A stretch of 64,000 nucleotides of DNA from Escherichia phage vB_Eco-B1.1, in the sequence record ON871820, one strand, 5' to 3'. Made by a program: the position numbers and the translations under genes. Of the stretch, positions 4,578 through 4,634 are shown piece after piece. Positions within the stretch are counted from its first letter, which is position 1. The number at the start of each line of letters is the position of its first letter. Below the pieces are notes generated by a model, which made no database searches, was not told the DNA's origin, and saw only the letters and a list, made by a program, of their open reading frames with translations.

Positions 4578-4607
4578 GTTTACTTTTCCTCTTGACTGTG
4601 GTATAAT
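4578..4607 (+). promoter_or_regulatory. early promoter of regB inside an inverted repeat
   Basis: GTTTAC 4578-4583, TATAAT 4602-4607; flanked by CCTCTTGACTG / CAGTCAAGAGG. Confidence 0.7.
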
Positions 4608-4634
4608 TTTTCTATCAGTCAAGAGGAGAACAAC

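Follow-up and report, generated by a model that had tools for sequence, protein, structure and literature searches.

Early promoters overlapped by stem-loops in a T4-related phage, with predicted closure of the regB and modB ribosome-binding sites in read-through RNA

INTRODUCTION

What is an early promoter doing inside an inverted repeat, one arm of which contains the next gene's ribosome-binding site? The question is raised by positions 4578 to 4634 of the stretch analyzed here (the "window": 64,000 nucleotides [nt] of Escherichia phage vB_Eco-B1.1, record ON871820), directly 5′ of regB (ATG at 4635). An earlier note, made from the sequence alone, placed the same design at three further sites: the gap between gene 41 and dmd (dmd ATG at 47658), that between a motB.1-like open reading frame (ORF) and motB (motB ATG at 60337), and the motB-cef gap. 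It likened all four to the promoter-early stem-loops (PeSLs) of T4-type phages and proposed that the hairpins hide the Shine-Dalgarno (SD) sequence in transcripts reading through from upstream. The likeness and the mechanism are separate claims, since what the PeSL papers put forward is termination and recombination rather than hiding of the SD.

PeSLs were defined in RB49 and phi1 and extended to T4/PST and KVP40/nt-1; their stem-loop is read as a terminator or attenuator, and a recombination-linker role is assigned to the cassette (PMC2839356, PMC4122927). As a repeated motif, they are linked to indels or mosaic junctions of hyperplastic regions. In T4/PST, their promoters follow the consensus TTTACW-N17-TAYWAT behind an AT-rich upstream region (PMC4122927). 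Sequestration is known from a different set of T4 genes, e, soc, 49, and I-TevI, in which long transcripts fold into a hairpin that covers the SD or AUG, and an internal promoter supplies a translatable short RNA; in those cases, this promoter is of the late type (TATAAATA), and expression is delayed until late (PMC3014915). As for regB, its promoter has been called "typical early," and the gene is autoregulated, its SD being cut by RegB (PMC3014915). We found no description of a hairpin at the regB promoter in the literature searched, although some papers may mention one. Piesiniene (2004) reportedly dealt with regB in 35 phages.

The window belongs to Tequatrovirus, the surroundings of regB being 98 to 99% identical to those in phages BF15 and RB27. 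Its + strand corresponds to the T4 minus strand, that is, to the direction of early transcription, and its genes run from the ipIII/denV side through regB, tk, nrdC, 49, nrdD, 55, 47-43, uvsX, and 41 to dmd, 56, soc, modA/B, dda, dexA, and motB, then gene 39.

RESULTS

The regB promoter lies within a hairpin that contains the SD

The regB locus consists of the following elements.

4578..4583, + strand: −35 box GTTTAC of the regB early promoter, found by a T4-type consensus scan; starts 2 nt after the vs.3 stop codon
4584..4598, + strand: 5′ arm of the regB hairpin (anti-SD), TTTTCCTCTTGACTG; fills the promoter spacer and pairs with 4616-4630
4599..4607, + strand: extended −10 box TGgTATAAT, within the hairpin loop
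4616..4630, + strand: 3′ arm of the regB hairpin; holds the SD and RegB site GGAG (4625-4628), ahead of the ATG at 4635

The arms enclose the −10 box, as the earlier note had it, and the downstream arm does hold the SD with its GGAG motif; the perfect repeat is longer than the 11 bp first given, at 12 bp (TCCTCTTGACTG, 4587-4598; CAGTCAAGAGGA, 4616-4627), and with one G·U pair the stem reaches 15 bp (4584-4598/4616-4630) around a loop of 17 nt. Start sites in this study were placed by sigma-70 geometry, about 7 nt past the −10 box. At regB, where the −10 box ends at 4607, this puts transcription initiation near 4614; the 5′ arm lies upstream of that point, so RNA initiated at this promoter would lack it.

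The arrangement is widely conserved. Homologs were gathered as 47 loci (from IMG/VR and GenBank) that reduce to 20 unique upstream regions, with genera including Tequatrovirus, Mosigvirus, Gelderlandvirus, Dhakavirus, Kanagawavirus, Jiaodavirus, Roskildevirus, and others. Roughly 1,100 phage genomes contain regB. The −35 box GTTTAC is kept in 17 of the 20 (GTGTAC in the remaining three), and 17 of the 20 show the same design: an anti-SD arm right after the −35 box, the −10 box in the loop, and the SD in the 3′ arm. GGAG is paired in all 17 hairpin-bearing orthologs, which represent about 15 genera and fall into 13 arm classes. In their distal halves, the arms vary by clade with complementarity kept, as follows.

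T4 group: CTTGACTG / CAGTCAAG
Mosigvirus: CTAGTTG / CAACTAG
L038: TGTAAG / CTTACA
L036: TTTTAGT / ACTAAAA
L041: TGTAG / CTACA
L035: ATCCTCATTTG / CAAATGAGGAT

At locus L035, the SD itself is altered (GGAG to GAGGA), and the 5′ arm is altered to match. Three genera, represented by KpV477, L030, and FBB1, have a composite form, in which an inner helix around the −10 box (GGGCCAT/ATGGCCC or GGGCTAT/ATAGCCC) is combined with an outer TCTCC/GGAGA helix.

A MAFFT alignment of these upstream regions lost the register of the arms (the stem shifts by 1 to 3 nt among clades), and column-based counting of pairs was dropped. Pairing was judged instead by an alignment-free chimera test, in which 5′ and 3′ halves from different clades were joined, and by a pair table anchored on GGAG. 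Over the 13 arm classes, cognate halves fold at a mean of −18.1 kcal/mol versus −10.4 kcal/mol (standard deviation [sd], 2.7) for chimeras; the cognate half ranks first in 11 of the 13 rows and in 12 of the 13 columns, and none of 100,000 permutations did as well (p < 1e-5). In the anchored table, three to four canonical pair types occur at offsets −2, −4, −5, −6, and −7 from GGAG. Co-variation across related phages, whose absence the earlier note had named among the results that would refute its idea, is present at regB and is joined by compensatory changes at motB and modB (see below).

The regB promoters of L046, L059, L054/L055, and L016 keep the GGAG SD, with the anti-SD arm and the hairpin either lost or never present, and in this sense they are natural "mutants." No proximal regB promoter was found in the RB49-like and Providencia phages among the collected loci.

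modB is a second, independent case

The same type of design recurs upstream of modB, a site that the earlier note had not listed.

54213..54247, + strand: modB hairpin, 14 bp with three G·U pairs, −18.0 kcal/mol; −35 box at 54189-54194
54213-54226 and 54234-54247, + strand: modB arms; the 5′ arm is the −10 box TATGAT plus 8 nt, and the 3′ arm is the SD GGAGG plus the AUG

This hairpin is conserved in Gelderlandvirus and Kanagawavirus: the helix ATGATAGC/GCTATCAT of T4 becomes ATGATGGC/GCCATCAT in Kanagawavirus IME523, a compensatory exchange of A-U for G-C, and carries a G·U pair in Gelderlandvirus CGG4-1. Matches to ModB obtained by tblastn in Mosigvirus and Dhakavirus proved to be a modA-like paralog located downstream, whose promoter is plain and lacks a hairpin.

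Early promoters are enriched for stable overlapping hairpins

All four inverted repeats of the earlier note are present, each enclosing or abutting a −10 box, with coordinates that were off by a few bases (1 to 3 nt on the cef side). Read-through RNA folds stably at each (regB, −26.5; dmd, −21.0; motB, −26.4; cef side, −21.4 kcal/mol), with z scores of −3.8, −2.9, −4.4, and −5.5, respectively, and none of 200 shuffles was as stable. The promoter-initiated leaders of these four sites are unstructured (z near 0).

For a census, a T4-type consensus scan of the + strand yielded 11 credible intergenic early promoters, and 62 nt were folded from each −35 box. In six of the 11, hairpin stability ranks within roughly the top 1% of the 62-nt windows of the whole + strand (genome percentile ≤1.3%): regB (−24.6 kcal/mol), cef (−20.2), motB (−19.7), mobD.2 (−19.0), dmd (−18.9), and modB (−18.0), against a background mean of −8.5 kcal/mol (sd, 3.6; Mann-Whitney p = 0.001). 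Their z scores range from −3.6 to −5.8, and none of 300 dinucleotide shuffles was as stable. The four listed sites are therefore real cases of early promoters in inverted repeats, and modB, mobD.2, and a smaller hairpin at nrdC.4 had been missed.

17332..17361, + strand: early promoter of nrdC.4 and its small hairpin, TACCACA / TGTGGTA (17340-17346 / 17351-17357), located in the −35/−10 spacer

The nrdC.4 hairpin is borderline (z −2.0); T4 has an A-to-G change here that keeps the pair. Four of the 11 promoters have no significant overlapping hairpin in this 62-nt census. One of them, mrh.2, shows only a weak CUUUCC/GGAGAG pairing (z −1.4) and is directly preceded by a canonical UUCG terminator (52052-52073). 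By sequence, the promoters conform to GTTTAC-N18-TATAAT/TATAGT/TATGAT, with a TGn extension at regB, dmd, mobD.2, modB, and nrdC.4, and none at motB. At the srd early promoter, the −35 box is at the center of a 24-nt, 79% complementary palindrome (AAAGTTGTTTACAAGTT..., 55503-55552), and the motif AAGTTG-TTTAC-AAGTT recurs around several early promoters.

Predicted closure of the SD in read-through RNA at regB and modB only

Accessibility was calculated as the free-energy cost of opening the segment from the SD through the AUG, in RNA starting 150 nt upstream (read-through) versus 7 nt after the −10 box (promoter-initiated). The costs, in kcal/mol, are as follows.

regB: 15.1 read-through versus 4.4 promoter-initiated
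modB: 13.3 read-through versus 2.8 promoter-initiated
dmd: 2.5 read-through versus 2.3 promoter-initiated
motB: 6.9 read-through versus 4.9 promoter-initiated (difference, 2.1)
cef side: 6.2 read-through versus 4.4 promoter-initiated
mobD.2: 3.9 read-through versus 6.0 promoter-initiated
nrdC.4: 6.3 read-through versus 6.3 promoter-initiated
mrh.2: 3.6 read-through versus 2.4 promoter-initiated

Opening is about 10.5 kcal/mol dearer in read-through RNA at regB and modB, and all other sites differ by ≤2.1 kcal/mol. The general claim of SD sequestration thus holds for regB and extends to modB but fails at dmd and motB and on the cef side. The dmd and motB hairpins reach no farther than the inferred start site, leaving the SD outside; on the cef side, the SD is 14 nt past the stem. 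By the same geometry, promoter-initiated RNA would carry the 3′ arm alone at regB and modB, whereas the dmd, motB, and cef hairpins end at or before the start. What the three further sites of the earlier note share with regB is a −10 box in or at the loop; among the four, the SD is in an arm at regB alone.

Modules at dmd, mobD.2, motB, and cef

The remaining strong hairpins are distributed as follows.

47599..47641, + strand: dmd promoter and stem-loop; −35 box at 47599-47604, −10 box TATAGT at 47623-47628
9758..9800, + strand: mobD.2 promoter and stem-loop; arms at 9765-9779 and 9786-9800; a paralogous copy of the dmd module
60263..60305, + strand: motB promoter and stem-loop; −35 box at 60263-60268, −10 box at 60287-60292
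60271-60283 and 60292-60305, + strand: motB arms; the 3′ arm includes the RegB site GGAG (60301-60304)
60862..60910, + strand: motB-cef promoter and stem-loop; weak −35 box ATATAC at 60862-60867, −10 box TGgTACTAT at 60883-60891

The dmd arms (ACAAGACTA, 47611-47619; TAGTCTTGT, 47628-47636) reach beyond the end at 47632 that had been given for them, and with four G·U pairs the stem extends to 15 bp (47606-47620/47627-47641). The dmd and mobD.2 modules are copies of one sequence (GTTTACAAG.TG.CAAG..TATGGTATAGTA.TCTTGT), the arms of which differ by compensatory and wobble changes; their common core, CAAGNNTATGGTATAGTANNCTTG, occurs twice versus zero times expected. The mobD.2 stem has an A-U pair in T4 where the window has G·U, and the variants of the dmd stem in relatives consist only of A-U, G·U, and G-C exchanges. 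The dmd module is restricted to Tequatrovirus (elsewhere, dmd abuts the upstream ORF without promoter or hairpin), so its covariation is testable inside that genus only. Single-protein IMG/VR scans with Dmd and MotB gave close relatives only, and GenBank tblastn matches were used for both. In phage RB6 (locus L074, positions 160-260, compared with window positions 47560-47660), the sequence is identical to T4 through the end of gene 41 and the dmd hairpin and diverges sharply right after the 3′ arm, with another SD and a Dmd of 67% identity. The result looks like a mosaic junction at the module boundary, which hints at the shuffling that the PeSL model predicts.

At motB, an inner stem (GGGACCA, 60277-60283; TGGTCCC, 60292-60298) is flanked by an outer ACTCT/GGAGT helix. 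T4 has the same GGGACCA/TGGTCCC stem and RB27 a G·U variant, TGGTCCT; in Gaprivervirus, VR20 has the compensatory stem GGGGTCA/TGACCCC, and in Dhakavirus, JS10 has GAGAGCCAT/ATGGCTCTC, as does locus L073. The GGAG paired in the outer helix (60301-60304, followed by UAUAAAA) is not the motB SD, and it matches the model RegB substrate of Durand et al. (PMC1702504); opening it costs 5.4 kcal/mol in read-through RNA versus 1.8 kcal/mol in promoter-initiated RNA.

The cef-side arms are ATCAGTAGTTGAT (60868-60880) and ATCAACTACTGAT (60898-60910). In JS10 (L082, 1015-1093), the motB-cef gap contains a promoter, GTATAC-N18-TACTAT, with a hairpin of its own, and in VR20 (L080, 931-984) it lacks a −10 box and contains a homologous hairpin whose loop has shrunk (GATAGGGTAA/TTGCCCTATC), which implies that the cef-side hairpin can persist without a promoter. 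Between this hairpin and cef, the window has an 11-codon ORF (MENLPKVLLLF, 60935-60970) behind a strong GGAG SD (60925-60928); it is intact in T4 with few substitutions (MENSLKVLILF), and it could encode a leader peptide or represent a micro-gene that is not annotated.

Farther along, the goF/comC-alpha region (61348-61389) contains an 18-bp perfect palindrome (AAAATTTTAATAGGACGC-CCAAGA-GCGTCCTATTAAAATTTT), whose 5′ arm, compared with T4, is an inverted copy of a downstream segment; this suggests a template-switch event that perfected the palindrome. goF is cut off after 52 amino acids (61225-61383), and a second ORF (61388-61642) holds the C-terminal part, such that the gene appears to be split or inactivated in this phage.

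RNA structure, DNA element, or terminator

Sense RNA is more stable than antisense RNA in six of the seven hairpins owing to G·U pairs (mobD.2, −19.0 versus −7.6; dmd, −18.9 versus −10.1; modB, −18.0 versus −10.1 kcal/mol), and all differences between T4 and the window in the arms are A↔G changes that keep pairing in sense RNA. Such patterns indicate that the stem-loops are selected as structures of the sense RNA. In a consensus scan for terminators, the regB, mobD.2, dmd, motB, and cef hairpins were not called, there being no U-tract after the stem: their 3′ tails are CAACAUG at regB, GUCAAGG at mobD.2, AAAUGAGG at dmd, AUAAAAUC at motB, and ACAGAAAAC on the cef side. None of these five combines a G+C-rich hairpin with an immediate U-tract, as an intrinsic terminator does; the modB hairpin was called solely through a weak T-rich tail. 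Canonical terminators were called elsewhere in the window, at 8934-8951, 50439-50464, and 52052-52073, of which 8934-8951 and 52052-52073 have UUCG tetraloops and U-tracts. The last of these forms with mrh.2 a separate "terminator then promoter" layout, unlike the overlapping hairpins. A search of the whole window with Rfam gave no covariance-model match at the gathering score.

Against these data, four other accounts can be weighed. The idea that the repeats arose by chance, or simply follow from the consensus sequences of promoter and SD, draws on the complementarity of a pyrimidine-rich spacer TTTCC to GGAG: TTTCC does open the spacer at several early promoters (regB, mrh.2, and modB), and at mrh.2 the resulting pairing is merely the weak one noted above. 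Shuffling and genome percentiles speak otherwise for the six census hairpins, the regB covariation is in the distal, non-SD part of the stem, and the motB and modB changes are compensatory; the covariation data refute this account, and we regard it as having next to no chance of being right. A reading of the repeats as DNA, in the form of operators for a dimeric protein or cruciforms that aid the shut-off of early promoters minutes after infection, is very unlikely. An inverted repeat flanking a −10 box does resemble an operator, and the shut-off mechanism has been described as incompletely understood (PMC3014915), but the arms differ among promoters and co-vary instead of being conserved, leaving no common recognition sequence; the two to four G·U pairs per stem become C·A mismatches on the other strand, making the antisense up to 11 kcal/mol less stable; and four of the 11 early promoters are without a significant overlapping repeat, although shut-off is global. 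The G·U asymmetry, the pair-keeping A↔G changes, and the lack of a common arm sequence argue against operator and cruciform alike, and this reading was rejected.

Translational coupling at regB, by which ribosomes ending at the vs.3 stop would melt the stem and, instead of silencing, allow regB to be translated from polycistronic RNA at a level set by vs.3 translation, is a well-known type of phage device (as in MS2), and the spacing invites it: the vs.3 stop is 2 nt before the −35 box, 9 to 11 nt before the 5′ arm (4584), and 12 to 14 nt before the perfect core (4587), and orthologs show equally tight stop/−35 spacing. By geometry, however, a stopped ribosome would cover only some 12 to 13 nt downstream, reaching the outer one to four pairs of the 15-bp helix and leaving the core (4588-4598/4616-4626) closed, and the modB 5′ arm begins 36 nt past its upstream stop; coupling is improbable. 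Rather unlikely, though to be taken seriously, is the view that all of the stem-loops, that of regB included, are primarily terminators or attenuators and recombination linkers, with SD pairing at regB and modB incidental. In its favor, PeSLs have been reported for T4/PST (PMC4122927), one RB49 stem-loop strongly lowers downstream expression in a lacZ assay (PMC2839356), dmd and mobD.2 are paralogous copies, the RB6 divergence just after the dmd hairpin resembles a mosaic junction, and VR20 keeps the cef-side hairpin without a promoter. On the other side stand the missing U-tracts at regB, dmd, mobD.2, motB, and cef, which the true terminators of the window possess; the regB SD/anti-SD pairing, which is present in 17 of 17 hairpin-bearing clades and tracks the SD change in L035, as a terminator need not; and an accessibility gap of ~10.5 kcal/mol that is specific to regB and modB.

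DISCUSSION

Relation to known systems

The modules of the window have the structure by which PeSLs are defined, which bears out the likeness drawn in the earlier note. They are intergenic and AT-rich upstream; by sequence, they contain what look like strong sigma-70-type early promoters (with a weak −35 and an extended −10 box on the cef side); and their stem-loops overlap the −35/−10 region, with the downstream gene's SD and start codon coming after. Their positions match the published subclasses "between −35 and −10" and "overlapping the −10," and there are signs of repetition in the genome (dmd/mobD.2) and of proximity to what looks like a mosaic junction (dmd of RB6). The differences concern function and composition. 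The published role is that of terminator or attenuator and linker, and the hairpins of the window, being without U-tracts apart from a weak T-rich tail at modB, give the terminator feature no support in sequence; the 3′ arms of regB and modB coincide with the ribosome-binding site, a function that the PeSL papers do not discuss (PMC4122927 contains no occurrence of regB, dmd, motB, or "translation"); and the stems of RB49 and phi1 are G/C-rich (GGGG...CCCC), whereas those of the window are AT-rich with G·U pairs. The dmd/mobD.2 paralogy and the RB6 junction are sequence hints that fit the idea of PeSL-mediated shuffling.

With e, soc, 49, and I-TevI, the regB and modB hairpins share a structure conserved among T4 relatives, a modeled pairing of SD and/or AUG in upstream-initiated RNA, and a promoter located in the DNA of the 5′ helix strand, such that by geometry the RNA from that promoter would lack the strand. 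They differ in that the internal promoter is an immediate-early sigma-70 promoter in place of the late promoter TATAAATA, and in that the predicted effect is opposite: expression would be limited to the first minutes, and RNA made later by read-through or in the middle mode would be kept from expressing the gene. The SD sequestered at regB is, moreover, also the site of autoregulatory RegB cleavage. Neither gene is in the list of inhibitory structures in the 2010 review (PMC3014915). The predicted gating would be a variant of this family and not a plain member of it, having a like mechanism with opposite temporal logic.

RegB/S1 targets consist of GGAG with an A-rich 3′ sequence, and RegB needs GGAG to be single stranded and is inhibited by structure (PMC1702504). 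The GGAG of the regB 3′ arm and that of the motB hairpin (GGAGUAUAAAA) are RegB sites; the hairpins differ in being outside the recognition element, and they would mask these sites in read-through RNA. Finally, like intrinsic terminators, the hairpins are stable intergenic RNA structures situated where an upstream gene ends; they are distinguished from such terminators at regB, dmd, mobD.2, motB, and cef by the want of a U-tract.

Two kinds of module and their proposed roles

The observed structures, their enrichment, covariation, and strand asymmetry, and the calculated difference in accessibility are, we think, probably best explained by PeSL-type modules in which early promoters are set in stem-loops selected as RNA and which are of two functional kinds. 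The functional consequences, like the start sites and the existence of read-through RNA, we infer. In kind A (regB and modB), one arm is in the promoter (the spacer at regB; the −10 box plus discriminator at modB), and the other is the SD, with or without the AUG. A transcript from the gene's own promoter would lack the 5′ arm and have an open ribosome-binding site, with the regB GGAG open to autoregulation by RegB; a read-through transcript would have both arms, and its ribosome-binding site and GGAG would be locked in a helix of 14 to 15 bp. Being open in the one RNA and locked in the other, these sites would tie the synthesis of RegB and ModB to the short burst of their own immediate-early promoters. 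In kind B (dmd, mobD.2, motB, and the cef side), the hairpin does not extend past the start site and would be present only in RNA from the gene upstream. Its most likely role in that RNA is to insulate transcription units, by attenuation or pausing of read-through or by protection of the 3′ end of the upstream message; the motB hairpin would additionally mask a RegB site, GGAG, in upstream-derived RNA, and the repeated modules may also provide homology for the modular shuffling of genes.

More tentatively, possible rather than probable, the hairpins could be "transcript-origin discriminators": a ribosome-binding site and GGAG that are open in own-promoter RNA and closed in read-through or middle-mode RNA would confine RegB and ModB to a brief early pulse and aid the long-noted preference of RegB for early over middle or late transcripts.

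Several points weigh against the two-kind explanation. The regB hairpin is absent, with the promoter kept, in three clades (Gaprivervirus L046/L059, L054/L055, and the Aeromonas phage L9-6 [L016]), which means that it is dispensable in some backgrounds. Taken by themselves, the regB orthologs show no significant difference between sense and antisense stability (p = 0.06). The start sites follow from sigma-70 geometry. In vitro, modB RNA is structured, and yet it is cleaved by RegB in vivo, perhaps when nascent (PMC1702504), such that co-transcriptional kinetics may weaken the gating. The function of kind B is the weakest step, as none of its hairpins has a U-tract, and the papers that defined PeSLs take the stem-loops to be terminators and recombination linkers, not translational gates (PMC2839356, PMC4122927).

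Implications for T4-like phages

Both of the genes predicted to be gated encode potentially harmful enzymes: RegB inactivates many early mRNAs and needs tight limits, and ModB modifies S1, EF-Tu, and other proteins. If the proposal is true, translation and RegB sensitivity would depend on the promoter from which an RNA originates, giving an account of restriction to the first minutes that can be tested by mutation, and control of the T4 lysozyme type would be extended from late to early promoters. The PeSL architecture and hairpin gating by late promoters are both known, and by analogy regB and modB may be viewed as the early-promoter version. At the level of the cassettes, the covariation indicates that PeSL stem-loops are selected as RNA structures and not only as recombination linkers, a refinement of the cassette interpretation that bears on the annotation and engineering of T4-like genomes.

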